A stretch of DNA of 59,289 nucleotides, filler included, from Squatina squatina (Eukaryota), in the NCBI GenBank assembly GCA_031763465.1. It is 4 parts of 3 records of this genome, joined end to end, with 100 filler letters (N's around TTAATTAATTAA, not from the genome) between each part and the next. Parts side by side here need not be neighbours in the genome. Positions count along the whole stretch, not along the records: positions 1 to 15,162 come from JARFOE010000203.1; 3 more parts are not named here. The stretch is one strand, 5' to 3'. Below the pieces are notes generated by a model, which worked only from the letters and a program-made list of their open reading frames with translations, ran no database searches and was not told where the DNA came from. The position numbers and the translations under genes are program-made. Positions 1-23,194 of this stretch are shown here, piece after piece. How positions within the stretch are numbered: the first letter of the stretch is position 1; each line of letters starts with the position of its first letter.

Positions 1-34
1 CTTTCAGAAGGACTAAATAGCAAGCGCACTGGGA

Positions 35-200
35 CGTGGGAGCCAGAGGAGGCCATTCAGCCCCTCGAGCCTGTTCCGCCATCCGATGAGATCGCAGCCG
101 ATCTGTATCTTAACTCCATTTACCCGCCTTGGTTCCATATCCCTTAATACCCTCGCCTAACAAAACTCTATCGCTCCCGGTTTGGACATTTTTATTGCTT
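35..200 (-). mobile_element. CR1-type LINE 3' end (approximate limits)
   Basis: GGAGGCCATTCAGCCCCTCGAGCCTG...CTCCATTTACCCGCCTT recurs at 21710-21800, where it continues into a CR1 ORF2 C-terminal frame. Confidence 0.7.
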
Positions 201-293
201 TTCTCCCCGCCCCCCCCCCCCCCCCGCGTTTTGCGGGGGNNNNNNNNNNAGCCTGTCTCTTGTGCCTAATGGGACTCGTGTGCTTGTTTTCAG

Positions 294-369
294 TTGGAGA
301 AATACCAGCAGGGAGACTTCGGCTACTGCCCTCGAGTGTACTGTGAGAACCAGCCCATGCTTCCTATTG
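294..369 (+). CDS. CSNK2B: Casein kinase II beta, internal exon ([25 protein letters not shown])
   Basis: tttcag acceptor and G|gtaagt donor; the 76-nt exon translates to the CK2beta zinc-ribbon segment, matching the human sequence as recalled. Confidence 0.96.
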
Positions 370-377
370 GTAAGTAA

Positions 378-535
378 AGAAAGAACTTGCATTTATATAG
401 CGCCTTTCACGCCCTCGGGACGTCCAAGAGCGCTTTATGGACAACTAGGTACTTTTGAAGTGTATTCACTGTTGTAATGTCGGAAAATCGGCCGCCAATT
501 TGCGCACAAAAAGGTCCCACAAGCTGTATTGGGAT
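378..535 (-). mobile_element. Deu-domain SINE (SacSINE1/AmnSINE-like) 3' part
   Basis: Reverse complement of the ...GTGCGCAAATTGGC...ACATTACAACAGTG...AAGGCGCTATATAAATGCAAG tail also present at 21068-21340, 27480-27800 and 44150-44365. Confidence 0.75.
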
Positions 536-635
536 NNNNNNNNNNNNNNNNNNNNNNNNNNNNNNNNNNNNNNNNNNNNNNNNNNNNNNNNNNNNNNNNN
601 NNNNNNNNNNNNNNNNNNNNNNNNNNNNNNNNNNN

Positions 636-1330
636 GAGTGAAGAAATTTCTCCTCATCTCAGTCCTAAATGGCTGACCCCTTATTCTGAGACTGTGTCCC
701 CTGGTTCTAGACTTTCCTAGCCAGGGAAAACATCCTCCCTGTGTCTACCCTGTCGAGCCCTGTAAGAATTTTATACGTTTCAATGAGATCACCTCTCATT
801 CTTCTAAACTCTAGCAAATACAGGCCTAGTCTACTCAATCTGCCCTCATCGGACAAACACCCCATCTCAGGAATCCGTCTGGTGAACCTTCGTTGCACTC
901 CATCTGTGGCAAGTATATCCTCCCTTAGGTAAAACTGTACACAATACTCCAGGTGCGGTCTCACCAAGGCCCTGTATAACTGCAGTAAGACATCTTTATT
1001 CCTGTACTCAGTTATGTGGAGAAGCTGGGATTGTTCTCCTTGGAGCAGAGAAGGTTAAGGTGAGATGTATTAAAATCCTGAATTTTGATAGAGGAATTAA
1101 GGAGAAACCGGCAGAAGGTTGGGTAACTAGAGGTCGCAGATTTAAGGTAATTGGCAAAAGAACTAAAGGGGGGAAAGAGATGAGAATTTTTTCTTTATGT
1201 AGAGAATTGCTGTGATCTGGAATGCACTGCCTGGAAGGTGGTGGAAGCAGATTCAATAGTAAGTTTCAAAAGGGAACCAGATATGAGCTTGAAATGGAAA
1301 CCTTTGCAGAGGTTATGAGCAAAGATCATC
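636..1330. mobile_element. CR1 LINE ORF2 C-terminal fragments (minus 636-1010, plus ~1010-1330)
   Basis: ORF 707..967(-) VRPHLEYCVQF...LEFRRMRGDLIETYKIL is the typical CR1 RT C-terminus. Confidence 0.85.
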
Positions 1331-1413
1331 CACAGGTACGATGATTTAAATCTGCCTGCTCCTCCGACCTTCTTGCATTTTAACTCTCCTTTTTCTTCTC
1401 TCTCCACCCCCAG

Positions 1414-1504
1414 GCTGTACGGTTTCAAGATCCACCCCATGGCCTACCAGCTCCAGCTCCAAGCCGCAAGCAACTTCAAGAGTCCCGTCAAAACGATCCG
1501 TTAA
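1414..1504 (+). CDS. CSNK2B: Casein kinase II beta, last coding exon ([29 protein letters not shown])
   Basis: Polypyrimidine tract + cag acceptor; matches the CK2beta C-terminus; TAA at 1502-1504. The intervening exon is not present (gap). Confidence 0.96.
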
Positions 1505-1949
1505 AAAATTGGCAACGCCTCCGAATGTCCACATACTACAGTGCGTCTGCAGGCACGAGATATGCCACAAGGCTGTAGATGGTGTCTACTTTAACAAAAA
1601 AACTGCTTACTTCCCCCACACCCGCCCCTTAATTTTTCTTTCTTGCCTTCCAAGTTTTCCAGTGTGTCCCATTTACAGAGTCATGAACTGAAGTTGGTGC
1701 CAATGGATTTCTTTCAGTGAAAAAAAATACTTAAATGTTTTGTCACAAAAATTAAAAGAATGTGTGTCAGGTGGAGTAGTTTATTTTCATTTCAAGCCGA
1801 AGCAGAGTCTTTCCGGCCTGCAGTAGCGGACGGTTTTGAGTCACCTCGAGGCTGGTGTCTCGTTTCCCCGAGGCAGTGTTGTCACTGGGATCTCACTTGG
1901 AGTGTTGGCGGCGTGGAGGAAGCTTTCTCGCTGCGTTGACTTTTGACGC

Positions 1950-2250
1950 GGGGGCCTGGCCAAGCTGTCCATCAACAGGTCCAGGCAGCGGGCGATCGAG
2001 GGGGTTGTTTGCCCCGACTGCCTGCCTCTCTTCCGCGGCTACGTTCGCGCCCGGGTGTCCCTGGAGAGGGAGCACGCGGTGTCCGCCGGCACGCTCGCGG
2101 CCTTCCGCGACCGGTGGGCGCCGGGGGGGCTGGAGTGCATCCTCACCGGGGACGATGGGCTTTTAATTTGAGCACCGGGGTTTTGTTTAAATTCCTGTTG
2201 TGTTTAGTTTAATTTGTTTATTGTATGTTGTTATTTAATTGATTTTTCCC
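1950..2250 (+). mobile_element. Tx1-clade non-LTR retrotransposon 3' fragment
   Basis: GLAKLSINRSRQRAIEGVVCPDCLPLFRGYVRARVSLEREHAVSAGTLAAFRDRWAPGGLECIL...LLI* (stop 2169-2171), then a T-rich tail; resembles the Tx1 ORF2 C-terminus. Confidence 0.7.
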
Positions 2251-3066
2251 CAAAAGATCTAGTTGTAGGACTAGCCATCAAAATGCTGTGCAGCCTTTTT
2301 AATGAGAGCTAGCAGGCATTTTAAGTGCCAATCAGATTTTTAACGAGCCTCCGGGCAGCTGTTCCTGGCACTGGATTTAACTCCTTTACCAAGATGGTGT
2401 CGTGTACTAAACATGGGCTAAACCAGCTTTTCAGCTTAAGACTCCATCTTGGCCACCTCAGAGGCTCTTTAGTGCCAAAAGTATTTAGCGAAAATTGCCT
2501 CAGATACATCACATTGGTACAGTGGGAGCTATTCTTGAGGTTGGTGCAAAGACACATTGTTGGAGAAGAATAGGGGAAGCTTTACTGTAAAGCTGGCTGT
2601 GTTCTACCTGTCCCAAATGTACTGATGCTAAAACTGACTGAATGCATTCGGTATTCAATTTCCCAGTGCAAACATTCCTCACAATAAATATTAAACAAAA
2701 TCACCAAAAACACCAACACAAGAATGCAGTATAACTATAAGATTAAAGTACTGCAGGAAACACCTGGATAATTTGTACTAAGTTTCAACAACCTGATTCA
2801 AGCAATAATACATAGGATACAGAGATTGTAAACTCAGCATTCAAATGTTTGTATGTAAGGGGTAGAGTTCCAAGCTAAAGCAATGTCTGTGTAGAATTGT
2901 GCCCAAATAGAGACTGAATGGACAATAACCTGGGCTTTAAAAATGGAGTCCTGTCAAGCAAAATGGNNNNNNNNNNNNNNNNNNNNNNNNNNNNNNNNNN
3001 NNNNNNNNNNNNNNNNNNNNNNNNNNNNNNNNNNNNNNNNNNNNNNNNNNNNNNNNNNNNNNNNNN

Positions 3067-3610
<544 letters not shown>

Positions 3611-4399
3611 TGATGAAAGTAATAAGATTATAGGTTAAGTTTCTGAAATAATGTTAATGAGCTCAAGTATCACATTCTGCAGAATATGTTGAAATTGCTG
3701 TTAGAGAAGCTTATCTAAATAATTAAAATGATGACAGTAAAGTGCACATTTTTATTTGGCTGGCCTAATGGTGTACTCTCCACTATATTTTCACCAGAGA
3801 ATGTGCTGAGCAGTAGCTCTGTACTTTCCCCACAATAAAGGGACAAAATTGGAAGGCTATTCACCTGCACTTGATTGGCTGCAGAGTAATATTGAAAGAC
3901 CAGAGAGCAGGCAGTCTTCAGTGGGGAGGGTGGAACTCTAAATAATTGAAACTAGCAACTACTTTTTTTTTATACTCATATCAAATTATGTGAACATTTT
4001 GTTTCAAATAAATGGATAAAAAGCTAACTTATGGCTCTTTAAATNNNNNNNNNNNNNNNNNNNNNNNNNNNNNNNNNNNNNNNNNNNNNNNNNNNNNNNN
4101 NNNNNNNNNNNNNNNNNNNNNNNNNNNNNNNNNNNNNNNNNNNNGCTAGTTGCTAGATCTCCTGTGCTCTTTCCACCCACCATCTATTCTTTAGGTCCTG
4201 GGTTTTTTGTTAGACCTCAGCTTTCAGTTGTCTGCAGATCTGTTTTCTTTCCCTTGAACTTTGGTGGTGCTTCTAATTCAAGAATGCCTTGCATTCATGG
4301 TTCAATAGCTCCTGGATCTCCTGGTCATTCTCGTCAAACTAGTCTTGATGTTTCCTAATAGAGAAACCAAGGGTCTCTTGGCAGGTGCAGATTATGGTC

Positions 4400-4905
4400 G
4401 ACTTGAGCACTGTGGACACTCCGGCGGCTCTGATTTGTTGAGCATTGTCAGGTTGGTTGGGAGGCGTTGACAGAGTGGGGCTTTCTTCGCAGGGGCTTGG
4501 AGTCCTTCGACATTGATTTTCCTGCAGCAATGTTTCTGATGCCGCTGCCATTTTGGAGCCAGGTTGATGGAGATAATAGAGTGGATTAGGCGGTGGTTGG
4601 TCCAGCAGTCGTCAGCTTGGCATGGGTATCTTGCGGTCCCTCACTCGAACAATGGCGTAGTCTCGCAGGTGCCAATGCCTGGAGCGAGGGTGTTGTCTTG
4701 AGGTCTTGTACTGGTTTCTCTGATGAAATAGGGTGTTAGTTATGACAAGACCATGTTCTAAGCATTTCGTCAGGACGAGGACTCCGTTGGAGTTTGCATT
4801 CCCTACTCCTTCCCTGCCAAATCACGTCTTTCCAGAGGTTTGTGTCCTTCCCAACTCCGGCATTGAAATCGCCAAGGAGAATCAGCTTGTCTCCCTTTGG
4901 GACAC
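4400..4905 (-). mobile_element. RTE LINE AP-endonuclease fragment (degenerate)
   Basis: Minus-strand reading PKGDKLILLGDFNAGVG...NSNGVLVLTKCLEHGLVITNTLF...HPRSRHWHL.DY. Confidence 0.8.
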
Positions 4906-5502
4906 NNNNNNNNNNNNNNNNNNNNNNNNNNNNNNNNNNNNNNNNNNNNNNNNNNNNNNNNNNNNNNNNNNNNNNNNNNNNNNNNNNNNNNNNNNNNNNN
5001 NNNNNCGGAGCAGACCCGAAGTCCTACTCCTGCTCCTATTTTCTATGTTTCTATGTATCTGAACTGCATTTCACAGTAATTAAAGTGCATAATCACACTT
5101 TTCCCCAGCAAGATCCCACAAACAATAATGAAAAAAATAGCCAGTTAACTTAAATATTTGAGTAAAGTAGAGCATTAACCCAGGAAATGGATAACTCCCT
5201 GTGCTGCTTCAAAAAAAAAGCACTACAGACCTTTTAACATCCACTTGCAGACCAGGCTTTGGTTTAACATTTCAGCCATCGAACAGCTAGACCGAAAGTG
5301 CAACACTCGCTCACGACTGCACTGTAATGTCAGCCTGGATTATGGGCTTCAATGTTCCGACTCAGATGAGAATGCCCACTGAGCCAAGCTGACTCGAGCC
5401 AGTTGGAGACCCATAACCACATCAGTCAACACCAAATACTTTTCAATGAACATAAAGAACTTTTTTTTTTTTTAAAAAAAAGACACATCTTAAAATCAGT
5501 TC

Positions 5503-6030
5503 TTAAAAATTCATGTAAATCCTCAGATCTTTCTCCCATGCTTTCTCCTTTGCCTCTCTCCTGCGTTCCTCCCTTCTGCTGACTGTAGCAGCCTTCTGCA
5601 CTCGACTGATTGGATTTTTCGGTCGCATCACTGCTTCGGAATCATTGGCATTAAAGTGGGTGACTTTCGGCTTCAAATCCTTCTGGAATCCTAGGCCCTT
5701 CTGATCTCTCTTCAGTACAGTCTTTACTGGGAACTTCTGCCCCTTGCCATCAGGTCCGAGACCAGTTTCCTTGTTCCAACCTTCCTTCAACATCATGTTG
5801 AAGCCGACGTTACTTTCTGGAATGAAGTAATATGTTGGCGCTGGCTTATCATTCTTATTGAACAAATGTAATGTCGACCTCTCATGCTGTTCGATGCTGT
5901 CTTCCTGGTATTCCACTTCACAAACCTGGCAGAATTTCTTCTGTGGGACCCCCTTCAGCTGTTCATTCTGTTCTTCCCATCGAGTGTGATAGTGTATGTG
6001 GAACGGACGATATACCGGAGACACCTTGCC
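5503..6030 (-). CDS. GPANK1: G-patch domain and ankyrin repeat protein 1 (BAT4), last coding exon; 5' boundary uncertain
   Basis: FCQVCEVEY..HERSTLH Cys/His motif, G-patch SNVGFNMMLKEGWNKETGLGPDGKG...RDQKGLG, and C-terminus REERRREAKEKAWEKDLRIYMNF resembling human GPANK1. Confidence 0.9.
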   Translation of the reverse strand, partial: GKVSPVYRPFHIHYHTRWEEQNEQLKGVPQKKFCQVCEVEYQEDSIEQHERSTLHLFNKNDKPAPTYYFIPESNVGFNMMLKEGWNKETGLGPDGKGQKFPVKTVLKRDQKGLGFQKDLKPKVTHFNANDSEAVMRPKNPISRVQKAATVSRREERRREAKEKAWEKDLRIYMNF

Positions 6031-6765
6031 CTANNNNNNNNNNNNNNNNNNNNNNNNNNNNNNNNNNNNNNNNNNNNNNNNNNNNNNNNNNNNNNNNNNN
6101 NNNNNNNNNNNNNNNNNNNNNNNNNNNNNNNNNGTAGCATTGTTTTCACACATTTTGGGGAAGTGTATGCATTCTTCCACTTCCATAGATATTTAACAGT
6201 TTTGGGAGTTAGTCTGTTTACATCTGGCCCCTTTCCTTTTGAGGCTCAGTATGCCTCAATTGTAATTTCAAGGTGGTTACTTCATCCTTCCCATTGCTTG
6301 AATGTAACGTTCCAACTTTCTGCTTCAGTGGTGTGTAGTTCCTGTTTCCTCCAAGAGGAAACTGCTGAATATCAGCAGCAAAAGAGGCAGTGGTGCCCCC
6401 AGTGACTTTATTCAGTTAGTAGATGCACCATACAGAGTGGGAAGATTAAGCCCTGGTCTCTGCTAAATTAGCTGTTCTCCACCAGGGTAGCCAATGGGTA
6501 CTAACAGTTGGCCTCTATTCCTGGAATAGGGAGGATAAACCTCACAATACCAAACCTATGAACACTAAGTTCATACCTGGAGTGTATGATCTCTTTCTTC
6601 CCCCTCCATTTTTTGTTGTCAATCAGCATATCACATGGTCATGATTTTATCAAGAACATATATACAGATGAAGCAAACAGTTCAGGACAGGACTGCATTT
6701 GAAAAACAAAAAGGAGCCTGCATTCTGTACTGAAAAGGGTTAATTATTTTGATGACTTTGTCCAG

Positions 6766-6866
6766 GCTGTTTCAAAGATCCGAGAATTCATTCTCCAGAA
6801 GATCTACTCTTTCCGGAAACCAATGACAAACTACCAGATTCCTCAGAATGCACTGCTCAAATACAG
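6766..6866 (+). CDS. VPS52: VPS52 (GARP complex) exon AVSKIREFILQKIYSFRKPMTNYQIPQNALLKYR
   Basis: tccag acceptor, AG|gtcaga donor, 101 nt; near-identical to human VPS52 as recalled. Confidence 0.93.
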
Positions 6867-7421
6867 GTCAGAGATCTGCTTGCAGCACTTTGAGTTCTAT
6901 ATTCTCAAAAGGGGTCATNNNNNNNNNNNNNNNNNNNNNNNNNNNNNNNNNNNNNNNNNNNNNNNNNNNNNNNNNNNNNNNNNNNNNNNNNNNNNNNNNN
7001 NNNNNNNNNNNNNNNNNNTAGCTGTAAAGCCATTTGGGACATTTAGTGGTCGTGAAAGGCGCTATATAAATGCAAGTCTTTCTTTTTATTAGATTCTTCT
7101 TGATGTTCGAGAATCCTTCCCTGACTTCGTGCCACCTTCTTTGCCTGGCAGTCATCTTGCTATCTTGTAAAATATGATAATAGAACAGAAGACCTTGCAG
7201 CTAATCGATTTGCTGCTACCACAGTCTGTGCATGATGTCCCCAATCATGGACTCCCCCTTCCAAGATCTTTATACTTCCTTCCTAAACCCATGCGAATTA
7301 AATAGACTTTTTAATATATCCAAAACGCTTGGTCCCCTTTTTCCGACAGGCATTGATCCAATTGCTTTTGAAAAGATATCAGTAGACTCAGAAGTCATTA
7401 CTTTTTCTGGTCACTAGACAG

Positions 7422-7522
7422 ATTTTTCTACCAGTTTCTTCTGGCGAACGAGCGTCATGTAGCAAAGGAAATCCGAGATGAGTACGTTGACACTATGAGT
7501 AAAATCTACTTCTCGTACTTCA
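7422..7522 (+). CDS. VPS52: VPS52 next exon, truncated by gap (FFYQFLLANERHVAKEIRDEYVDTMSKIYFSYF)
   Basis: cag acceptor at 7419-7421; phase continues the previous exon (AG|A = Arg). Confidence 0.93.
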
Positions 7523-8425
7523 NNNNNNNNNNNNNNNNNNNNNNNNNNNNNNNNNNNNNNNNNNNNNNNNNNNNNNNNNNNNNNNNNNNNNNNNNNNNNN
7601 NNNNNNNNNNNNNNNNNNNNNNAGAGTCTGCACAAGGCACAACTAACTAAGTCTGCACATGGGTGTAAATGGCTACTCTGAGCATAAGGGATGCATATTT
7701 AAACAGTCTCTTCAGTTTGGTAATTATTATCGTCTCCGTGTATTTATCCATTCTGGTGAATGCACTTTGGGGAGGATTGGTATTTCAAAGGCAGAGGAGT
7801 AATCGATGATTTATTATAATCCAGTGGAGAATTTGTGTGTTTGAATCTTATCTAAATAGTATAATTATCCTTGGAATTCCATTCCCAGTACATGTTCTGA
7901 TGTATTCACTGCCAAGGACAGTTCCTTAATGTGTAGTTGCATGTGCTGCACACTAACACTGTCTGCACTGTACTGAGTCTTGTTGATGTAACAACCTCTT
8001 GTAGGCAGAGGGCTGGTCTAGAGCAGTGTATGATGCCAATACGTGACCAGTACATGTAGATATTAGGATTGTAAATGCAAGGTGAGTCAGAAGGTAACTT
8101 ACTTTAACTTGAAACTTTCAGGGAGCACTGACTCAGCTGATCCAATACTATCATCGATTCCACAAGGTCCTCGCTCAGCCTCCTTTCAAGAACCTTCCCG
8201 TGCGCTCAGATCTCATCAATATCCACCATCTCATGGTCGAAGTGAAGAAACACAAACCCAACTTCTAACTGCCTGTAAAAGTGTCACTTTCTTTCTCTAT
8301 CTGTCCATGTTGTTTGTACTACACTAGAGCGACGGTGTAAGGGTTAAATGCAAATATAATGACAATGGTGTTCTCTTTGTGCTGCCAATGCAAATGTTCA
8401 TTGGCTACAATGAAGTCGAGAGTGT

Positions 8426-8602
8426 GGAGTCCCGAGAGCATAAAGCGAGAGAGAGTGGAGACCCGAGAGTATAAAGTGAGGGAGGGAGCGGAGACCCGAG
8501 AGTATAAAGTGAGAGAGGGAGCGGAGACCCGAGAGTATAAAGTGAGAGAGGGAGCGGAGACCCGAGAGTATAAAGTGAGAGAGAGCGGAGACCCGAGAGC
8601 AT
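8426..8602 (+). repeat. Minisatellite, ~33-bp unit GAGACCCGAGAGTATAAAGTGAGAGAGGGAGCG, 5+ copies running into a gap
   Basis: Unit starts at 8458, 8491, 8524 and 8557. Confidence 0.95.
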
Positions 8603-8966
8603 NNNNNNNNNNNNNNNNNNNNNNNNNNNNNNNNNNNNNNNNNNNNNNNNNNNNNNNNNNNNNNNNNNNNNNNNNNNNNNNNNNNNNNNNNNNNNNNNNN
8701 NNGGTTAACCACATTGTCGGACAAGGAACGCCAGATTCTAGTTAATCCACAGCGTGTTTGTTCCAGGAGGGTAGAGAAAGCAGAGGCTCGCACTGCGCTT
8801 TCCAGCCCGGACACCCCATAGCCTTGTGCAAAGATGCGCTGATTTTTATTTTTAAATAAAAAAAGAGTGGAAAAGAGAAAAGGCAAAAAGACTATGGGTT
8901 TTTTTTTCATTTTCTTTATTGGCTGGCTGCTCACAGAACGGAGAGACACTTTGCGGCTCCTACCAA

Positions 8967-9063
8967 TCACTCGTCGCCCTTTGCCTGTGCCCGCAGGAAG
9001 CTGGCTTTCCGCTGAGCGACACGGTCCTGCCGCTGTGCCAGGGACAGCTTGGCTCGGTTCCAC
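8967..9063 (-). CDS. RPL5 (uL18)-like, last coding exon ([31 protein letters not shown])
   Basis: cccacag acceptor, TGA at 8969-8967, minus-strand AATAAA at 8920-8915; homologous to RPL5 [26 protein letters not shown]. Confidence 0.9.
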
Positions 9064-9437
9064 CTGTGGGGAACACAACGCGAAGGAGGGAGGGGAGGGT
9101 TCAGTCCCAGAAAATATCCGCATGCAGCCTCCATCAAACTGCGCCAATCAATCAACGCAACAAAAATCCACCTGCGTGGCCGAGGTACCCTTTACCGCCC
9201 CGTGACCACCAGTCCGAAGGACACCGGATGCACACCCACCCTTCCCAATGGTGACCAAACACAGCATTGCTGGATGTTTAAACTCCCGACTTCCCTTGCG
9301 CACATGCCAGACCAATCTGTGTCAGAGCCCACTGGCCCATTGCTTTGCTCAGTGTAAACTCTTCCCGGTCACTCTCCACCATCCCCCCATGCCCCCCGCC
9401 CTCACACACACACACACCACAGAATTCCAGCACTCAC

Positions 9438-9529
9438 CGTTTGGGATGGGCAATCTCCTTCTTGGATTTCTTCTCGTGGGTCGGGTTTGCCCGGATCTCC
9501 CGGTGGGCAGTTTTGTAAATTCCCTCCAC
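9438..9529 (-). CDS. RPL5 (uL18)-like, penultimate exon (VEGIYKTAHREIRANPTHEKKSKKEIAHPKR)
   Basis: ttgcag acceptor, CG|gtgagt donor, 92 nt, splices in frame to 9063; aligns to RPL5 [30 protein letters not shown]. Confidence 0.88.
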
Positions 9530-9914
9530 CTGCAAGGACCCAAACAGCTGTCAGTTCCACACTGCTAGGACGCCGCGGATAAGTGCTGCCCGTCGGGGGA
9601 AGCGAGGGGCTCGCGAGCCACAAGTATCATCCTTGCACCCCACCCTCACCATAGAAAGGACACACAGCGACGTCCCATTCACTCACTCCGACACACCCAT
9701 GAAGTGACACCCCCTCCCCTCCCCGAAACACACTCACTGTGCTTGCAAAGGTCAGATGCTCATCACCAAAGCGGGTTCCTGTCTGTCACTCCTCCTAAAC
9801 ACACCGCTAAGATTCTCAAAGTCAGGCACCAGCCATCCAAAGATTTTAAACGTTATTAAATGGGCAGGAATTGTTGGGGCAGCCCACGACCGCTCCCATC
9901 GGGCGAAGGTCATA

Positions 9915-10240
9915 TGGTGGTCCAGTGGCATTGTGGTGATGTTACAGGATTAGTAACCCAGAGATCTCAAGTTCACATTACATCATGGCAAGTTATGAAT
10001 TCAATAAATCTGATGATTTGTGGGCTGGCGCCAGAAAATTAACCATTAATAATGCTGGATTGTCATAAAATCCAGTGGTTCACTGATTTCCTTCAGCAAA
10101 GGGAACCTACCATACCTACCTCCATCTGGCCAACATGTGCCTTCAGTCTCGCACTGCATGATTAACTCTTAATGCCCTCAGGGTAACTAGGGTGGGCAAT
10201 AAATTCTGCCACTCCAATGTTGCCCAAATCCCAAGACGAA
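9915..10240 (+). mobile_element. Old tRNA-type SINE with GGCAACTAGGGATGGGCAATAAA-type LINE tail (approximate)
   Basis: Tail at 10180-10235 matches the LINE 3' ends at 11150-11230(-) and 55390-55450(+). Confidence 0.55.
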
Positions 10241-11139
10241 GGCACTTCTAATGATTTTCTACTGAAAGTGATTGAACACACATGTCTAAATATTGGCAGG
10301 AATATTTAAATAACACGACCCAGATTTTGCAGTTGTAAGGATGGCAAAATTGTCAGAGTTCGCTGTCATTACCCTGTGAAACTGACAACAACTGCTGGCA
10401 GCCACACATGCGCAGTTAAATTCAGAAATCCAGAAGTTATTGCTGTCAGTGATTCCCTGCTCCTCCACAGGGCACGCTGAAGATCCTGCAGACGGCACAG
10501 AATCAGTGATTTGATGAACTTCCCCTTGTACGCTGCAATATCACTGTTAAAACCCCTGTTAAAACGTTGAGGCTTGTTCAATGAGGCGTATCTGAGTTTT
10601 TAATGGTATACCAAGTCATAAGCACTACTGAACAACCTTTCTGGCCCTGAAAATTGAATTTTATACTTGTGGATGTCAAATTTTTCCATTATAAAAATTC
10701 CATATTTTAATAATTTTTTTTAAAGTTTATATTTCATCTTCTACCTTTATCCCATGTGTATGTCCCAATTTTTATTTCACTCTAAAATAATTAAAAGTGA
10801 AGGAAAATCAGTACACTTTACTTCCTGGTTTGTTGTCTGTGAGAATTCTTCAATTAGATTGACTGTTTCACACACTGTTGACGTCACTGTTGCTGGATAG
10901 CAGAGATCCCCTAGACATGGCGCCAGATTCAAATTAACACCAAGAAGTGTGAAACTGATGCCACAGAAATCGCTAGATCTTTGTTGGAAGCTTTCTCGAG
11001 GTCAGCGGCAAGCGCTGCCACTTTGCCGCTGACCTCAAAATTCGAGCTATAGTTAATGAAAGGTAACATTATACAATCTGACCTTACATCATTTAACCGG
11101 AGTGATACTAGAAATGCAAGTGCAGATTGCTTTTTTTTT

Positions 11140-11970
11140 TTAAAATATTTTTTCTGGGATGTGGGTGTTGCTGGTAAGGCCAGCATTTATTGCCATCCCC
11201 AATTGCCCTCGAGAAGGTGGTGGTGAGCCGCCGCCTTAAAGCGCTGCAGTCCGCGTGGTGTGGGTACTCCTACAGTGCTGCTAGGGAGGGAGCTCCAGGA
11301 GCGACGATGAAGGAACACTGATATACTTCCAAGTCAGGATGGTGTGCAACTTGGAGGGGAACGTGGAGGTGATGGTGCTCCCATGCACCTGCTTGCCTTG
11401 TCTGTCTAGGTGGTAGAGGTTGCGGGTTTGGGAGATGCTACCAAAGAAGACCTGGCGAGTTGCTGCAGTATACCTTGTGGGTGGTACATTCTGTAGCCAC
11501 AGTGCGTCGGTGATGAAGGGAGTGACTGTTGAAGGTGGTGGATGGGGTGCCAATCAAGCGGGCTGCTGTGTCCTGGATGGTGTCGAACTTCTTGAGCTGC
11601 ACTCATCCAGGCAAGTGGAGTGTATTCCATCACACCCCTGACTTGCGCCTTGTAGATGGTGGAAAGGTTTTGGGGAGTCAGGAGATGAGACACACACTCC
11701 ACAGAATACCCAGCCTCTGACCTGCTCTTGGTGCCACGGTATTTATGTGGTTGGTCCAGTTAAGTTTCCGGTCAATAGTGCCCCCCAAGGATGATGGTGG
11801 GGGATTCTGCGATGGCAATGCCGTTAAATATCAATGGGAGGTGGTTAGACTCACTTGACGGAGATGGCCAATGCCTGGTACTTGTGTGGCGCGAATATTA
11901 CTTGCCACTTATCAGCCCAAGCCTGAATGTCGTTCAGGTCTTGTTGCATGCGGGCATGGACTGCTTCATT
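11140..11970 (-). mobile_element. CR1/L2-superclade LINE 3' portion
   Basis: HLLTPQNLSTIYKAQVRGVMEYTPLAWMSAA frame plus 3' tail ending near 11140. Confidence 0.8.
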
Positions 11971-12517
11971 TGCTGTCCAGCATTGTTCTGTTGGCAGAAG
12001 GGGTGGGGCGGGGGTGTAAATTTAAATTTTGAAGCGTGGGATTTTTAAAATAACATTAAGTTATTGCCCTTCAGCTACTGTGAAAGTAGCTAGCCACATT
12101 CTGCTGCTGCAGGACCAAAGGCCTGCAGCAGTGATTTTCCTCTTTCTTGAGGAGTATCCCTGCCAAAATTATGTAAATATGGTTGACCCCGAAAAAATTG
12201 GCCAGTGTCAGAAGTAGAGACACAACCAGAGGACAGGAAGATGTCCCACCCCACCAAAGTTCCGATGGGATCCCTCATTTTCCCTCCTTTAGTGTGATAT
12301 ACTTTTAGCTGGGAACAAATTACCTGACACCACATAGCAAAACATAATTTATGGAGTTATTTTAAAAAAAAGAACAAAATAGTACGGATGCTGGAAATCT
12401 GAAATAAAAACAAAAAANNNNNNNNNNNNNNNNNNNNNNNNNNNNNNNNNNNNNNNNNNNNNNNNNNNNNNNNNNNNNNNNNNNNNNNNNNNNNNNNNNN
12501 NNNNNNNNNNNNNNNNN

Positions 12518-13274
12518 CTCACCCGGGTCCAGGGCAAGAAAAGCAAAGTCTTTGTTTACATCAATGAGCTATGTACGGCGCTCAAAGCCAACTCCCAAAA
12601 AACAAAGCTCGCCCTGGCCAACAGGGAGAGTTCAAAGCAGCTGCTGGCCGGGGCCGAGGGCCAGTCTGACACAGTTGCTAAGGAGCAGGCCGACTGCCCC
12701 GACAGGACTTGTGCACAGTCGGGGGATGTGGCCTCCACATCTGTATCGCAACCCGCTGCCACCGCCGGAAAAAAGCACTCGGGCAGCGGGTCGCGCCGGC
12801 AGATCCGCTATCTGGAGAACCTCTTGAAAGTTTACACCGATGAAATCAAGCGGCTTCAGGAGAGGGAGCTGGACTTGAATGAGTTGGAAGATGAGGATTC
12901 CTCTTACATCCAGGAGCACCGGCTCAAGAAGAAGATGGTGAAGATCTTCGAGAAGCTGTGCGAGCTGAAAAGCTGCTCGAGCCTGACTGGCCGTGTCATC
13001 GAGCAGCGCATCTCCTTCACGGGCACACGCTACCCCGAGATCAATCGCAAGATCGAGAAGTTCATCAACAAGCCTGATCACTTCCCCGACTACCAGGACA
13101 TCAGGAATATCATGCACAAAGTCAGCACCAGGCACACCTTGGGGCTCAGCCAAAGACAGATTCAGAGCATGGCGCAGGACGTGTTCCGGGAGGTGGGCAA
13201 TCGTCTGCAGGAGAGGCGCCACCTCGACCTGGTTTACAACTTTGGCAGCCACCTCACTGACGATTATAAGCCAG
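12518..13274 (+). CDS. DAXX: Death domain-associated protein, large exon (helical-bundle end + histone-binding domain); 5' end in gap
   Basis: Open frame from 12518: KVFVYINELCTALKA...GSRRQIRYLE...CSSLTGRVIEQRI...LQERRHLDLVYNFGSHLTDDYKP, G|gtgggt donor. Confidence 0.96.
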
Positions 13275-14888
13275 GTGGGTAGGCGTTGATAACAGGCATG
13301 AGGTTCTGGCGGGGCAAGGGGAGAAGACGGNNNNNNNNNNNNNNNNNNNNNNNNNNNNNNNNNNNNNNNNNNNNNNNNNNNNNNNNNNNNNNNNNNNNNN
13401 NNNNNNNNNNNNNNNNNNNNNNNNNNNNNNGACCCCTCAGCTGGGGGAAATAGGTCCTTCCTTATTTTGTACATCTCAATCCAGTCTCCCCTTGTCCTCC
13501 TCTGTTCCAAAGAGGCCAATCCCAGCCTATCCAGTCATTGACGGGCTCTGTGCAGTAAAACCGATTTCTGGATGTCCAAAACTGTAAGCCTCTGCACGGG
13601 ACTGAGATCGCAGCCAAGACCATAATCGGCGCACGTTTCCCACAGCCTCGAAGGCAGCAGGGGGAAATATTGGATTAGTGGATTAAAATAAAACTCCCCG
13701 CACCTTGGGCAGAGTGTTCTCTACTCTGGGAACCGCTGCGTGCTACTTTCTGCCTGCTAGTCATCGCCGAGCCCTGAGAACTGTGCTGTAGGTTACAAAA
13801 TACGTGGCAAGGGAGTGACTGGTTATTGAGGCTGAATCCAAGTTTGGGAATACTCTGCTGATCTTGGTCTTAGAACCTACGCATTCCAACCTACCTGGCT
13901 GCCTAAGCTAGTTCTGCTTCTGTTACAGTCGTGAGTAGTGAATGGCAATGTCCTGATGATCTGTTGTACAGTGTTGACCAGTGAACAGCAACTGGCAACA
14001 ACTTGTATTGTGCAGGCCTTTTATGTCCTGCTATTTGGTCCCTTTCCATTGGGTCGACACTGCATCTGCCAGAGAGAGCTGGTCATTGGAAATGCATCGA
14101 ATCTGTACCAACAAGGATCTAACTTGCTGCACACTTGGTTCTGTTGCCTGAGGTTTTGATTGTCCCTGCTCTCCAGGATGCTCTCCTCACAGTTCCCCCA
14201 TTGTTGTGGTGCACTCTGCTCCAGCTGGTGAAGTGCTGTTTAAAAACTAGCAGGGCTTGGGAGAGGAGCAGGCGAGCGGAAGTGTTTATGCAATCCTGGG
14301 CGATGGTGGTCTTTCCCTCTCGTCACTGATTCTAGGATGTGACTGCACAGTCTGTTCCTTGCTGACTTACCGTCTCGTGGGTGAACCTAGACCAGTCACT
14401 GAGCGAACAGTTCGGGCTGTGTAATGCTCCCTGATATTGTGGACAAGGCCTGTTGTCAGCTGTGTAACGCGCTTTGGACTGGAGAGGTGAGGAGAGGGTT
14501 GCAGTGTTCTCTCCAGGTAAATGCTTTCCCATGTACCTTTGGAATGTGCAGTGTGTGGGGATTTTGGTCCTTACTGATGTACAGTGTTGGTTGTGTCTGT
14601 GCAGCTCAACAACCTCCTGCACCTGATCATCAGCTGGCTCGGCCAGTATTGTTTATTTATTTGTCCTGGATTTATTGAAGATCTCTTTGTGGCTACAAGG
14701 AAAGAACTTGCATTTCTATGGAATATTGGCCCATCTCTTGCTGTCTCAGTACTTCACATACAGTGACATAAATACAAGTCCTTTCCTTTAGTGGAGAGGA
14801 GTGAAAGGGCCTTGACGTTTAGTAAAAGTGTGCACCTTGTTTCATGAGCTTGTTTCTTGACCTCTTGTGCTTTGTGTGTGTGTTTCAG

Positions 14889-14948
14889 GTGAATGTGGCA
14901 ACTCAGTGTGACCCAGAAGAAATCATTGTCCTGTCGGACTCTGACTGA
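14889..14948 (+). CDS. DAXX: DAXX last exon with SUMO-interacting motif (VNVATQCDPEEIIVLSDSD*)
   Basis: tttcag acceptor; IIVLSDSD is the conserved DAXX C-terminal SIM; TGA at 14946-14948. Confidence 0.95.
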   Translation: MNVATQCDPEEIIVLSDSD

Positions 14949-15051
14949 AGCACAGTGGGACGTCCACTCACTGGACCCGCTTCGACCGCAGGGAGTACTG
15001 TAAATGGTCAAGGAAACGGGGAAAGCTCGCACTGGTGTTCCGTGCTGCCTG

Positions 15052-15059
<8 letters not shown>

Positions 15060-15095
<36 letters not shown>
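15060..15095 (+). repeat. (CT)n microsatellite in DAXX 3' region
   Basis: Seen directly. Confidence 0.95.
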
Positions 15096-15099
<4 letters not shown>

Positions 15100-15162
15100 T
15101 TTAAGCATTGCGAGACGAAAGTTGCAGGCAAATTTTTTTTTTGTTATTTCAAGTTGAGTTTT

Positions 15163-15262
15163 NNNNNNNNNNNNNNNNNNNNNNNNNNNNNNNNNNNNNN
15201 NNNNNNTTAATTAATTAANNNNNNNNNNNNNNNNNNNNNNNNNNNNNNNNNNNNNNNNNNNN
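15163..15262. other. Artificial scaffold linker (44 N, TTAATTAATTAA, 44 N)
   Basis: Stop codons in all six frames; an identical structure occurs three times. Confidence 0.97.
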
Positions 15263-16076
15263 ATAAAATGGTGCCTATTCTGACTCCTGCCGCTAGCGCT
15301 GGATTCTCTGAGGTGAGGCCCGTGTCAACGCTGAAAAAAACAGGCGTTGTCACCGCCGGATTTAGTGCACAGTGAGACTGTGCAATTCTGGAGGGGCGGC
15401 CATTTTGTGCGGTGTGCGCACTGATGACATCACAGCACTGCATTTAGACTAACGCCAGTGCCTCGAGCATTATGGGCTTTGTGCCCGTTTAGCACTGGCA
15501 CAAACAGCACCCGAATTTTGACCCGCGTTTTAGTGCTAAATGTGGCCTAATGCCAGTTTCGCGCCCATTTGTCGCTGGAAGTTTTACCACGAATTGGCCG
15601 CCCAAAAAGTTTCCAGTTTTGAGTCCGTCTGAGTAGATTGTTTAACACACAAAGGCAGCCTTAATCAATTCAGGGCATAAATATGAGGCTAGTACTATGT
15701 TCAGGGGCTGCAGTCACGAGAGAGTCCTTGGTTTGGTGACCGAGTGAGGCACCCAGGTCGAGGTAAGCCTGACCAGCACTTCGAGCCTGGGGAAGCATAA
15801 AAGGTGTTTAACTTTATGTATATTGTGCTGAATTGTGTTTAATTAGGTAGAATCGTTGTATGTGTGTCAGATAAACAAATAAAAGTGCTTACAGTTAATC
15901 CAACATTGTGTGTAGGTGTCTGTAATTCCCAGAGTCATTAACCTTGTAACCTAGGGTAAAGGCACGCTCCTTTTTTTAAACCTACACAAACCAACTGTTT
16001 TCTGTGCCTGCATGTGGACCTCATTCCCGTATGGAATTCTGGGGGGGAACAAGGCTCACTTGGCAGTGCTCCTTAC

Positions 16077-16275
16077 CTTTGAGGGGCCCGGCACTGAGCA
16101 CGGTACAGGCCGGCAGGACAGTGGCGCCCCGGAACGCTCGCTCCAGGTTGTTGTGCTGTTTGGCCAGCTGCTCCAGGGTCTCCTCCAGCCGGATCCGCTG
16201 CTCCCGCTCGTGCTGGAGTGCTTTCTGCCACTTCTTGCTGTGAGTCTGGGCCAGTAGCAAGAAATCGCGGCAAGC
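16077..16275 (-). CDS. OSBP: Oxysterol-binding protein exon (ACRDFLLLAQTHSKKWQKALQHEREQRIRLEETLEQLAKQHNNLERAFRGATVLP...)
   Basis: tctag acceptor, G|gtaagg donor, 199 nt; matches the OSBP coiled coil. PATL1 nearby favours OSBP over OSBP2. Confidence 0.88.
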
Positions 16276-16596
16276 CTAGACCCAGAAAGAGAGAGAGAGA
16301 NNNNNNNNNNNNNNNNNNNNNNNNNNNNNNNNNNNNNNNNNNNNNNNNNNNNNNNNNNNNNNNNNNNNNNNNNNNNNNNNNNNNNNNNNNNNNNNNNNNN
16401 CTCGGCTGCCCCCGACCTTTTGCATCTCGGGCGGGCGGGGAGGGAGGGAGGGAGCGCGAGTGGGTGTGTGTCGGGGGCTCAGTACCACACCGGGTGTGAG
16501 TTCAAGCTCACTCAGCACAGGCCGGGGACGGAGCCTCGGCCTGTTTTGCTGATGCTGGGTGACTCCCCTTCCCCCGACGCGACCGGACATTCCTAC

Positions 16597-16777
16597 CTGA
16601 TAGTAGTAATCGTCTAGGTAGGGGTCCGCGCTCTGCAGCTGCATCATTTGGATCTTGCTGACCCACTCCTTCTCCCGCTGGGTCATCAGGTTGCTGTAGG
16701 GGTCCTTCTTCATCTGCTCGTGATAGCTGCCCCTGCTGTGCCTGTCTCCTCCAGACCCATTCTGCCCTCGGTGCTGG
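16597..16777 (-). CDS. PATL1: PAT1 homolog 1 exon ([60 protein letters not shown])
   Basis: ctctcag acceptor, CAG|gtagga donor; conserved PAT1 mid-domain motif. Confidence 0.9.
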
Positions 16778-17097
16778 CTGAGAGTGGCAAAGAGAGAAAC
16801 CGACTAAGGGCCAGACACACGGGGGCGAGAGCGCGCCACAGAGCGAGGGGGCGAGTGCGCGACACAAAGTGAGAGAAACACCAATCAATGCTTTTTGAAT
16901 CTTTTCGGGACATCTGGCTCCAGACTGTCTCCGCAGCGTTTGGTTAACGGAGTACATTTTCTGCAGTTGATCCGTGCCCCGTCCCGCTGCTCTCACCNNN
17001 NNNNNNNNNNNNNNNNNNNNNNNNNNNNNNNNNNNNNNNNNNNNNNNNNNNNNNNNNNNNNNNNNNNNNNNNNNNNNNNNNNNNNNNNNNNNNNNNN

Positions 17098-17180
17098 AGA
17101 ATCGAGGGGAGCAGGGACTGTGGATAGTGGAGAATCGAGGGGAGCAGGGACTGTGGATAGTGGAGAATCGAGGGAAGCAG
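17098..17180 (+). repeat. Minisatellite, 33-bp unit AGAATCGAGGGGAGCAGGGACTGTGGATAGTGG, ~2.5 copies at contig edge
   Basis: Unit starts at 17098, 17131 and 17164. Confidence 0.9.
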
Positions 17181-17866
17181 TGTCTGGATGGTGGCGAATC
17201 AAATGGAGCCGTGGTGTTGAGTTTGGTTTTGTTGCGGGCATTGGGGTCAGGTGGTGGAGTCGGCTGGTGAGTGGGGGAGGAGAGTTGGTAGAGCAGAATT
17301 GGTTCAGTCGGGGAGTTTTATTTTATCTTGCGCCTGTAACATAGTAACATGTCCCAAGGCATTTAGCGATTATCAAAGAACATTTGACATCAAATCCTAT
17401 GAGGAGATATTGGGACAGGTGTGCAGAGGCTTGGTTCAAGAAGTAACTTTGAGGTGCTGGCGGGGAGGTCTCAGTGGTGAATTCCAGAGCCTAGGGTGCA
17501 GGCTGCTTCAGGCATTGCCACCAATGGTGGAACAGTGAAAATTGGTGATTTGAAGCAGACTGAATTGGAGGAGTGGAGAGATTTCAGATGGGTGAGGGGC
17601 TGGAGTGGGTTAGAGAGGTAGCGAGTGGGAGCTGTTGTGTCATTGGGAGCCTGTGGAGGTCCCCGTGTCGGGCTTTCCTGGGTAGGTGGGCCCTGGCAGT
17701 AAGTTCCCTCCGTACCCAGTGAGACCAGCGCTGGGATTGATGGTGTCACTGTTTCCCTCGGGCACAGTGCCCTCGGGAAGCTGGCGTCGCGGACACACCC
17801 CGCTTTCACCCCCAGCCCTCCCTGTCCTGCCATCGCGGTGACCTCGAGTCTTGGTCTCCTCCGCAG

Positions 17867-18093
17867 AAAACGGCGAGGCCCCGGCAAGTCGGCAGGACCT
17901 GCGCACGTGCGGCGAGGCGCTGGGGGAGCTGGTGGGCTGGGCGCATCGCCACTGCCAGGGCTGCCTCCACCCGCCCAGCCTGAGGTACCTGCCGCTCGGC
18001 GGCACTGCGCCGGCTGTCTGGGCCTGCCAGGCCGGCCACACCTACCGCTGGCGCGTGGCGGGACGCAGCCCGAGGCGGAGGGGGCGGTGCCGG
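17867..18093 (+). CDS. GC-rich exon encoding a ZNF692/ZNF653-like N-terminal Cys/His domain; probably an upstream exon of ZFP91
   Basis: ccgcag acceptor; LGELVGWAHRHCQGCLHPPSL...AVWACQAGHTYRW resembles ZNF692 (LSHAHSRECSLVPGL...VWECSAGHTFSW) as recalled; truncated by a gap. Confidence 0.65.
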
Positions 18094-18389
18094 NNNNNNN
18101 NNNNNNNNNNNNNNNNNNNNNNNNNNNNNNNNNNNNNNNNNNNNNNNNNNNNNNNNNNNNNNNNNNNNNNNNNNNNNNNNNNNNNNNNNNNNNTTATGCG
18201 ATTAATTCATCCATCTTATTGCAAATGCTCTACGCATTAAGACACAAAGCCTTTAGGCTTGTCCCCTTAGCATTATTTTATTTTGTGGCCCTGTTTGTTT
18301 TTCACCCTTGATTTCTCTGCCTTCCACATTTGCTTTTCCCCTTTCTGTCTTTTGTTTCTATCCTTGTATCCCCTTCCTCTGACTCCCTG

Positions 18390-19050
18390 CATAGCTTCCC
18401 ATCCCCCTGCCATTTTAGTTTAAACCCTCCCCAACAGCACTAGCAAACACTCCCCCAAGGACATTGGTCCTGGTCCTGCCCAGGTGCAGCCCGTCCAGCT
18501 TGTACTGGTCCCACCTCCCCCAGAACCGGTTCCAATGCCCCAGGAATTTGAATCCCTCTCCTTTGCACCATTCCTTTAGCCACGTATTCATCTGATATAT
18601 CCTGGGATACCAGGGGGTGGGGGACTTCAGTTATGTGGAGAGACCAGCAAAGCTGGAATTGTTCTCCTTGGAGCAGAGAAGGTTGAGAGGTGATTTTAAT
18701 AAAGGTGTTCAAAATAATGAAGGGATTTGGTGCCGCAAACGAGGGAGCTGTTTCCTCTGGTGGGTCGGTAGCCAAAGTAATTAAATGACAAAAGAACTAG
18801 AGGTGAAATAAGGAGAAATGTCTTCATAGAGGGTTGTTGAGATCGAGAACACAGTACCAGTAAAAGAAAGGTCAAATCAGATTCCGTAAGAACTTTCAGA
18901 GAGGTAATTGAACATCTAATTGAAGAGGATTAACTTGCAGGGTTATGGGGAAAAACTGGCACTAGATAGGACCGCTCTTTTGAAGAGCCAGCACTGACAC
19001 AATGGCCTCCTGTGCTGTAAGGTTCTATGATTCCATGTTCTATGATTCTA
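18390..19050. mobile_element. CR1 LINE fragments (ORF1 minus ~18390-18606; ORF2 end and tail plus ~18607-19050)
   Basis: Similar to the CR1 pieces at 23494-24085 and 41960-43146; TTCTATGA-repeat tail at 19023-19053. Confidence 0.75.
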
Positions 19051-19117
19051 TGATGTGTTGTTTGCAGCGCTGTAATATATAACTGACTGACGCTTCATCT
19101 CTTCAATCTTGCGACAG

Positions 19118-19168
19118 GAGGCCACGGAGATCAAAAGAAGACAGAGGCCCTCGTCTACCTAAAAAGCG
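19118..19168 (+). CDS. ZFP91: ZFP91 exon (RPRRSKEDRGPRLPKKR)
   Basis: acag acceptor, CG|gtaagt donor; homologous to human RRRKDDKSPRLPKRR and splices in frame to the next exon. Confidence 0.82.
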
Positions 19169-19397
19169 GTAAGTATCTTGCCTGTGTTACTGTATAACCT
19201 GGGGGGCAGTGACCGGTGTATAACCGGGAGGATGCTTTGCCGTTGGTTAACTCTGCTTCCATCGCAGGACTGGTCGAGACTTTCCGCAAATGGGATCATC
19301 CCGGTTACAGTTGGCAAGCGGGAGGGTCGGTCTGCTTGTATTACGATGCTAGGTGTAAGTGAACGTCCTGGTCTAACTTGCCCCTCCTCTCCCTCAG

Positions 19398-19476
19398 GAA
19401 GAAGCCTCCTATCCAATACGTGCGCTGTGAGATGGAGGGGTGTGGAACGATCCTCGCCAATCCAAGGTACCTGCAG
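19398..19476 (+). CDS. ZFP91: ZFP91 exon, start of zinc finger 1 (KKPPIQYVRCEMEGCGTILANPRYLQ)
   Basis: ctcag acceptor, CAG|gtcagt donor, 79 nt; near-identical to human ZFP91. Confidence 0.93.
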
Positions 19477-22090: not shown

Positions 22091-22543
22091 GGAGGGAGTG
22101 CAACCTGCCCTCGTAATTTTAGCTTGTGTGAGCTGCCAGTGAGCCAGGGTCCTCCACCAGGACACACTCAGAAAATTACCCTCAATGCAGGNNNNNNNNN
22201 NNNNNNNNNNNNNNNNNNNNNNNNNNNNNNNNNNNNNNNNNNNNNNNNNNNNNNNNNNNNNNNNNNNNNNNNNNNNNNNNNNNNNNNNNNNCCCATTGGG
22301 GATGATTCAGGCCCGGATGTCCTACAGACGCAGCGCTGTGGGGCTGGGCGGCTGGGTCTCGTGGCCCTGTGGCTGGGCCTCTGACGTCACAATGGACGGT
22401 GATGCTCGCTCGGCTGCTGCTGGAAACCATTAAACGGCCAATAGGATTTAAAGCTGGAGCGAGGCCGGTTAAAGGGGAGGGACAGAAAAATCGGCCAAAA
22501 TTGTCCATACAATGAGAGCCGTGATGTGTATAAACTGAAATAT

Positions 22544-22629
22544 TCACAGTGTCACGCTCAGTCTGGGTCTGGATACCTGCAGCGCCCTCAGGTGTCTCTC
22601 TGTCTGAACTGAACGAATTCCCCCACAGC
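22544..22629 (-). pseudogene. Degenerate terminal exon of an NLR LRR region
   Basis: Acceptor reads tttcac instead of tttcag. LWGNSFSSDRE shifts frame in a GA run relative to HLRALQVSRPRLSVTL*. Confidence 0.6.
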
Positions 22630-22777
22630 GTGAAACAGATTAAAGATTAAACAGGAAATAAACAGATTGAAGAACAGTGTAAATAACAGGCAGCCTGGGG
22701 TTAATATTACAATAATAATTACAGACAGATATTCCCCATTAAAGTGACTGAATCCCTTTGATATTGCAAGCACTCAC

Positions 22778-22945: not shown

Positions 22946-23194
22946 CTGGGGATCAGAGAGACAAATAACAGGAATCAGAGTTAATTAATAAGAATATTAC
23001 TAATTACTGATACTACTAATAATGTACAGTGTTTTTTAATAACACTTACTGATACTCATAATAATGTGTTTATTCTACTAATAATGCACAATGTTTATCA
23101 GTAACACTTATTGAAGTGTTTATTAATAGCACTAATAATAGTGTTCAGTGTTACACATTCAATTATAAACACAATCTCACAGACTGGTACTTAC

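Follow-up and report, generated by a model that had tools for sequence, protein, structure and literature searches.

RPL5-like, whose last two coding exons lie in a Squatina squatina sequence of 59,289 nucleotides (the window), is a real and ancient paralog of RPL5 and likely an ohnolog. We consider it probable that RPL5-like is a spliced second uL18 gene arranged head-to-head with DAXX in the MHC, that it is a copy from an early-vertebrate whole-genome duplication (WGD), and that it supplies a working alternative uL18 beside RPL5. It has likely been kept in sharks, bichirs, lungfish and salamanders and lost in mammals. Already known are the '-like' annotations at NCBI and uncommented rows in published MHC gene tables (sawfish and reedfish); no account of the gene as an ancient paralog appears in the papers searched.

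The 3′ end of RPL5-like and its probable transcription in relatives

The window is made up of short contigs chained by 100-N gaps and is not one continuous sequence. Artificial linkers at 15163–15262, 28083–28182 and 44007–44106 are all identical (44 N, a 12-base all-frame stop spacer and 44 N). The RPL5-like locus sits on the first scaffold (1–15162), with what look like independent scaffolds beyond the linkers; because the linker at 15163–15262 ends this scaffold, genes past 15262 are not callable as linked to it, and because the scaffold itself consists of short contigs across 100-N gaps, distances between genes in the window are not measurable. The contig order may have been reference-guided and is not independent evidence of synteny. 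The RPL5-like features are as follows:

9438–9529, minus strand: penultimate coding exon, 92 nt, AG acceptor and GT donor; residues 236–266 of the 297-amino-acid shark orthologues, with a one-codon insertion
9064–9437, minus strand: last intron, 374 nt, GT..AG, phase 2
8967–9063, minus strand: coding part of the last exon, 97 nt including the TGA stop
8899–8966, minus strand: 3′ UTR, with AATAAA at 8920–8915
8850–8845, minus strand: second AATAAA, downstream of the first
9530–12417, minus strand: portion of the intron that precedes the penultimate exon, followed by an assembly gap

The two spliceable exons with canonical sites, stop codon and AATAAA that a sequence-only reading had described are thus all present on the minus strand. 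Joined, the exons are in frame and give 62 codons plus a stop, corresponding to the C-terminal 62 residues of a uL18 protein. Both score far above chance against PF14204 (Ribosomal_L18_c; 36 bits for the penultimate and 33.8 bits for the last exon, against a curated cut-off of 23), and solved uL18 chains in PDB align with the last exon at E values down to 4e-10. Four read-through ORFs with canonical-type C-termini (P0005, P0008, P0009 and P0026) break at the same two places, so that the intron positions of RPL5-like are those of canonical RPL5, as had been claimed. Retrocopy origin is ruled out by the kept intron; the gene has parental introns at parental positions, together with splicing, as befits a DNA-mediated duplicate. 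The last intron of human RPL5 hosts an H/ACA snoRNA. Rfam found no snoRNA family in the last intron of RPL5-like even at E ≤ 10 (two chance hits fell within 9040–9460, neither to a snoRNA), in line with the earlier failure to recognise SNORA66 there. No Rfam family reached its gathering score anywhere in the window, and four hits at E 4.5–9.2 were dismissed as chance.

By tblastn with eight uL18 proteins the window holds only residues 236–297 of RPL5-like; residues 1–235 had no match in it, and the pattern of the preceding exon was likewise absent from it. The earlier exons would fall in the gap after 12417. Orthologues such as P0002 are full length and include the N-terminal domain PF17144. 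The description of the gene as intact is therefore established for relatives only, given that the upstream exons of S. squatina lie outside the window.

Transcription was assessed in four of six listed runs, which come from two related organisms and two studies and are presumed to be RNA, none of the six being on record as such. Contigs from all four covered both exons at high depth and left the intron essentially bare; in run X5 the last intron is missing from one contig to the base, the 374 nt left out having CT..AC ends. Loose contig ends at 9530 run into the preceding RPL5 exon, one contig with 757 further bases. One X6 contig stops at 8899 within a stretch of T; as the window has its own T run at 8899, this may not be a true poly(A) end. 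Several differences and gaps in the 3′ UTR mark the runs as coming from relatives and not from S. squatina. Of the three coding single-base differences listed between window and runs two are silent, and the residues P and K of the related runs are replaced by S and H in the window. Provided that the runs are indeed RNA, the RPL5-like orthologue is spliced in these relatives.

Among elephant shark GenBank entries with AFK/AFM accessions at least 16 are RPL5-like and at least six canonical RPL5, spread across the accession range. An elephant shark cDNA set from six tissues is described in PMC3466250 (in part); testis contributed 586 of its 6,778 coding clones, and ovary was not among the tissues. 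Should the AFK/AFM entries stem from this set, the share of testis (less than one-tenth of coding clones) argues weakly that RPL5-like is not testis-only. The germline-type specialisation that had been suggested found no backing: no evidence of germline restriction emerged, and the elephant shark cDNA records point weakly to somatic expression.

Distribution and phylogeny of RPL5-like proteins

An ORF search with the last exon, of which 46 of 54 candidates were listed, gave the uL18-like proteins of Heterodontus, Heptranchias and Carcharodon as its best matches, and lower in the same list came their counterparts from Cetorhinus, Scyliorhinus, Mustelus and Hemiscyllium; named shark uL18-like proteins made up the top three matches and six of the first 13. 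The piece encoded in the window is identical at 45–55 of 62 residues to ten cartilaginous-fish RPL5-like proteins and at 36–41 of 62 to five canonical shark RPL5 proteins. This, together with the separate clades described below, bears out the claim of a paralog distinct from canonical RPL5.

Both copies were retrieved from elephant shark (Callorhinchus), catshark (Scyliorhinus), smooth-hound (Mustelus), whale shark (Rhincodon) and Senegal bichir (Polypterus). These five genera include cartilaginous and bony lineages, as would be expected of an ohnolog pair, and in these species RPL5-like is not the only RPL5 in the genome. Within a species the two proteins are 76–82% identical. Further RPL5-like proteins came from reedfish, coelacanth, lungfish, three caecilians and three salamanders. 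Of these, coelacanth, lungfish, caecilians and salamanders had no canonical RPL5 among the matches listed.

A profile search with 12 RPL5-like proteins added no further lineages with RPL5-like among the best 120 of 5,899 matches. Arginine at position 197 (R197) occurs in 53 of 259 proteins screened. The named carriers belong to cartilaginous fish, bichirs, coelacanth, lungfish, caecilians and salamanders, with two exceptions, an anomalous panda record and a teleost protein whose KKKR tract is intact; five of the 53 are unplaced proteins at 70–75% identity. Caecilian P0179 has S at this position, and 13 proteins have no aligned residue. The panda record, P0173 (XP_034507515.1), is labelled giant panda '60S ribosomal protein L5-B-like, partial', comes from a 618-base contig and clusters with axolotl RPL5-like; it is likely to be contamination or mislabelling and not a mammalian member. 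No amniote, frog, gar, sturgeon or teleost RPL5-like protein was seen among the 259, which suggests repeated loss in these groups, the absence being weak evidence because the protein clusters were only partly listed. Nor was there a ray or skate RPL5-like protein among the listed matches of three protein searches, in which canonical copies of six batoids appeared. The sawfish gene table lists an RPL5-like gene all the same.

Trees were built from 44, 44 and 36 hand-picked rows, with truncated isoforms, read-through ORFs and redundant rows excluded. In the two 44-row trees cartilaginous RPL5-like proteins form a clade (support 100/96 and 98/96) and cartilaginous canonical RPL5 a separate one (100/99); RPL5-like thus stands apart in the trees from the canonical protein of the same lineage. 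Coelacanth, lungfish, bichir, salamander and caecilian RPL5-like proteins form a bony-vertebrate clade in a 44-row tree (95/93). The union of the cartilaginous and bony clades is present in both best 44-row trees, with support of only 90/20 and 54/72, and is lost in the 36-row tree, from which the invertebrates, coelacanth and one lamprey were omitted and in which shark RPL5-like branches beside lamprey. In AU tests an amphibian-only origin was rejected (p 0.001). Placement of the lampreys outside both copies was marginally rejected (p 0.0375), as one of six tests and not after correction. A cartilaginous-only duplication (p 0.087 and 0.217), a bichir-only duplication (p 0.35) and a grouping of lamprey with RPL5-like (p 0.33) were all compatible with the data. 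With deep nodes this weakly supported, protein trees alone do not date the duplication.

Lamprey RPL5 (P0257, P0258 and P0046) has in common with shark RPL5-like an insertion near 261 and P263, and E245 is common to lamprey RPL5 and elephant shark RPL5-like; at position 197 lamprey RPL5 has K, as does canonical RPL5. The polypterid RPL5-like proteins P0207 and P0208 (bichir and reedfish) sit on a very long branch of 0.45–0.5 changes per site and are near-identical between the two species, which suggests that rapid early change gave way to constraint.

Teleost rpl5a/rpl5b and Xenopus rpl5-A/-B, which are products of later lineage-specific doublings, also place two intron-bearing RPL5 genes in one genome. 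Unlike RPL5-like, these pairs group with canonical RPL5 and keep K197 and KKKR; a duplicate of the teleost or Xenopus type is ruled out by their place in the trees.

Position in the MHC and origin of the copy

The other genes of the first scaffold agree with the claim that the locus lies among MHC genes:

1414–1504, plus strand: CSNK2B last exon, residues 187–215 of casein kinase II beta, E 5.7e-14
5503–6030, minus strand: G-patch exon (PF01585, E 4.7e-13), read as the last exon of GPANK1
6625–8268, plus strand: VPS52 exons on three short contigs; PF04129 (Vps52_CC), E 1.4e-13 for 6703–6918
12518–14948, plus strand: DAXX, with a large internal exon at 12518–13279; PF03344 and PF20920
About 14889–14948, plus strand: presumed DAXX last exon, recognised from its C-terminal motif

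With the gene order in support we take the G-patch exon to be GPANK1; the remaining VPS52 exons, which have no Pfam match, are presumably such, and the DAXX last exon is assigned by its C-terminal motif. The order is CSNK2B (+), GPANK1 (−), VPS52 (+), RPL5-like (−) and DAXX (+), with DAXX divergent from (head-to-head with) RPL5-like. The proposed linkage to DAXX and VPS52 was therefore found on the scaffold of RPL5-like itself, and the DAXX adjacency recurs in sawfish and reedfish.

The separate scaffolds of the window carry other genes. An HSP70 family gene (PF00012) at 28183–31609 has its C-terminal part in a separate exon; as it lies on a different scaffold, its identity as an MHC HSP70 is not established. 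At 22143–25130 a series of short exons spaced like leucine-rich repeats, together with a longer frame that resembles a NACHT region, presumably belongs to an NLR gene, and an exon with a HYPK/NAC-type UBA domain (PF19026) at 39728–39970 is probably from a NACA-family gene. Two homeobox exons (PF00046) at 56962–59199, with a degenerate tandem repeat in the intron, we take to be a DLX-type gene. The exons at 16024–19460 and 26808–27116, with C2H2 and weak PAT1 Pfam matches, we read as OSBP, PATL1 and ZFP91, all of them presumably human 11q12 genes. On reedfish chromosome 1 human 11q13 genes directly follow the MHC (PMC10751288, supplement, in part); the OSBP/PATL1/ZFP91 scaffold could, but need not, derive from the chromosome that carries RPL5-like.

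The same arrangement is visible in chromosome-level gene tables (PMC10751288 and its supplement, in part). On sawfish chromosome 34 a '60S ribosomal protein L5-like' gene (minus) comes directly before daxx (plus), the annotated ends being 559267 and 559475 and so 208 bases apart; on reedfish chromosome 1 a gene of the same name is head-to-head with daxx across 19.5 kb. Near them on these MHC chromosomes are wdr46, kifc1 and phf1, with class I, class II and brd2 about 1–2 Mb away. In white shark, catshark and lungfish this slot is taken by an unnamed gene of like orientation, at a distance from DAXX of 2.3, 7.2 and 7.4 kb respectively, and the rows available for white shark and catshark repeat the gene order and strands of the window. 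By strand, slot and chromosome length these unnamed neighbours are candidate RPL5-like genes. The records that hold white shark and catshark RPL5-like measure 115.85 and 163.47 Mb, just exceeding the last listed genes of the MHC chromosomes. The axolotl RPL5-like record has 848,590,089 bases (848.59 Mb), and axolotl chromosome 13, which bears the MHC, is given as 848.6 Mb (PMC12619710, in part). The catshark sheet is titled chromosome 37, and Table S1 puts the same MHC genes on chromosome 13 (PMC10751288, supplement).

RPL5-like thus lies beside daxx in a known paralogon, the MHC, in sawfish and reedfish, as far as the available tables go. A DAXX slot common to a ray and a ray-finned fish points to one origin before the jawed vertebrates split, and the position of the gene would place the copy before the divergence of sharks and bony fish. 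PHF1 and BRD2 are on the same chromosomes as RPL5-like. BRD2 and BRDT are on different shark chromosomes; catshark BRDT is on chromosome 4 and catshark canonical RPL5 on a 244.3-Mb record. We take human RPL5 to lie near BRDT and MTF2, presumed paralogs of BRD2 and PHF1 respectively. The regions on chromosomes 1 and 6 are described as MHC paralogons that separated at the first round (PMC10751288, in part). The cause of the duplication would then be a WGD that parted the MHC from the BRDT-bearing paralogon, more probably in the first round. In the earlier proposal of an MHC-linked ohnolog, the linkage stands, beside DAXX in several lineages; the WGD origin is likely, by inference, with a deep split that is weakly supported.

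Other origins account less well for these observations. An old small-scale duplication, by which a segmental or transposed intron-bearing copy came to lie beside DAXX before the jawed-vertebrate radiation and independently of WGD, is in our view quite unlikely. It would draw on the inability of the trees to date the split, on the presumed nature of the canonical copy's place in an MHC paralogon, and on the human chromosome 11 genes that the region holds (C11orf98 beside DAXX), so that material has been exchanged; it fits poorly with PHF1 and BRD2 being co-chromosomal with RPL5-like and their paralogs MTF2 and BRDT presumably near human RPL5. That parts of chromosomes 1 and 6 are treated as paralogons of the MHC (PMC10751288, in part) also speaks against it. 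Still less probable is a decaying remnant in S. squatina, either the last two exons only or a gene with broken upstream exons. The upstream exons are indeed absent from the window, and S and H replace P and K of the related runs, but the frame is open with canonical splice sites and poly(A) signal intact, two of the three coding differences are silent, and relatives have full-length orthologues; DAXX, VPS52 and GPANK1 are equally fragmentary, and the missing RPL5-like exons therefore reflect the assembly. That shark, bichir and lobe-finned RPL5-like are separate lineage-specific duplicates, merely alike, is barely credible: the AU tests that accommodate a cartilaginous-only or bichir-only origin, and the 36-row tree in which RPL5-like is not one clade, would allow it, yet sawfish and reedfish have the gene in the same head-to-head slot beside DAXX, so that one site would have to have received an insertion twice; the AU test also rejects an amphibian-only origin, and R197 is held in common.

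Divergence, function and significance

RPL5-like evolves about 2–3 times faster than RPL5 (tree distances of 0.41 versus 0.17, 0.88 versus 0.27 and 0.61 versus 0.34). The divergence is concentrated in residues 111–140 and 191–265, where vertebrates and invertebrates likewise differ most; residues 236–265 are the most variable stretch of uL18, with invertebrates 63% identical to the canonical majority there. Substitutions shared among RPL5-like proteins include K197R and Q at 210. R197 is found in 16 of 16 RPL5-like rows and in none of 20 canonical rows, and K263, the third lysine of KKKR, in none of the 16 and all of the 20. K263 is also missing in both lampreys and in three of six invertebrate rows, and an insertion occurs at the same place in lampreys and sharks; bony RPL5-like proteins have no insertion. 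The intact KKKR tract may therefore be the derived state. The C-terminal departure reported from the sequence alone is real with respect to canonical vertebrate RPL5 (one-residue insertion and loss of KKKR), but, since lampreys and invertebrates are alike in this, the broken tract is no sign of specialisation and was ruled out as a mark of it.

Residues 1–30 are kept at 89–97% in RPL5-like. In human uL18 these residues bind Mdm2 and the import chaperone Syo1 (PMC10442235, in part). From this conservation we infer that the protein would bind 5S rRNA and uL5 and enter the 5S RNP and the 60S subunit alongside canonical RPL5, and that the contact with MDM2 and the import chaperone would be kept, so that RPL5-like could join the MDM2 checkpoint. 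It was probably retained because expression and dosage are divided between it and RPL5, perhaps with the aid of a promoter region in common with DAXX; subsequent loss in amniotes, frogs and most ray-finned fish would account for its absence there among the matches listed.

The same ancient gene might instead be specialised, as a tissue- or germline-restricted uL18 forming distinct 5S RNPs or ribosomes in the style of RPL3L or RPL10L. We hold this to be unlikely, if the most serious of the alternatives. It would explain why a gene that evolves so much faster than RPL5 has nevertheless been retained for more than 400 million years, and it could take the shared substitutions at 197 and 210 as its signature; DNA-mediated ribosomal protein duplicates are rarely kept in mammals, and those that are kept have distinct roles (PMC4219774, in part). 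The elephant shark accession counts, if they derive from the PMC3466250 set, speak weakly against testis-only expression, and the C-terminal changes are common to lampreys and invertebrates. A bolder version is a speculation that we think doubtful: RPL5-like would form a second, tissue-switched class of 5S RNPs and ribosomes as a first-round ohnolog of about 500 million years, a bidirectional promoter with DAXX would co-express an MDM2 inhibitor and an MDM2 partner, and lamprey RPL5 would be the orthologue of RPL5-like and not of human RPL5.

As a working alternative uL18, RPL5-like would stand close to RPL5/uL18 itself (human 1p22; Xenopus and zebrafish uL18 in PDB 7OYC and 7OYA), with the same two Pfam domains in full-length orthologues, a like length of about 297 amino acids, the same last two intron positions and the N-terminal Mdm2/Syo1 stretch. 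It differs in having its own MHC locus beside DAXX and in evolving faster; it carries R197 and lacks KKKR, is longer by one residue in cartilaginous fish, and gave no snoRNA match in its last intron. The group to which the window exons belong is that of the NCBI models called 'large ribosomal subunit protein uL18-like' or '60S ribosomal protein L5-like', which are labelled automatically and span sharks, chimaera, bichirs, coelacanth, lungfish, caecilians and salamanders (for example NP_001279541.1, XP_060707178.1, XP_028657646.1 and XP_069491316.1). In the literature searched, which left subscription journals and some supplements outside its scope, we found no treatment of these models as one ancient paralog group or of their MHC position. 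RPL5 is not mentioned in the main texts of PMC10751288, PMC12619710 and PMC12863176, nor in the supplements examined of the latter two.

RPL3L and RPL22L1 are likewise old, intron-bearing, DNA-mediated duplicates of core ribosomal protein genes that have long been kept (PMC4219774, in part); both persist in mammals and have tissue-specific or antagonistic roles, whereas RPL5-like had no amniote representative among the 259 proteins screened. The hidden RPL5-like copy also matters for phylogenomics: RPL5 is a common marker and RPL5-like can be labelled simply '60S ribosomal protein L5' (as in Microcaecilia), which makes for a hidden-paralogy trap. RPL5 is regarded as a single-copy, dosage-sensitive gene of vertebrates. 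Old ribosomal protein gene duplicates made from DNA are rare in mammals (PMC4219774, in part). A second uL18 kept from chimaeras to salamanders means an extra gene in the ancestral extended MHC class II block and one by which the MHC paralogons could be dated; in tractable animals (axolotl, newt and catshark) it would let ribosome heterogeneity and the 5S RNP-MDM2-p53 checkpoint be studied in a natural setting.
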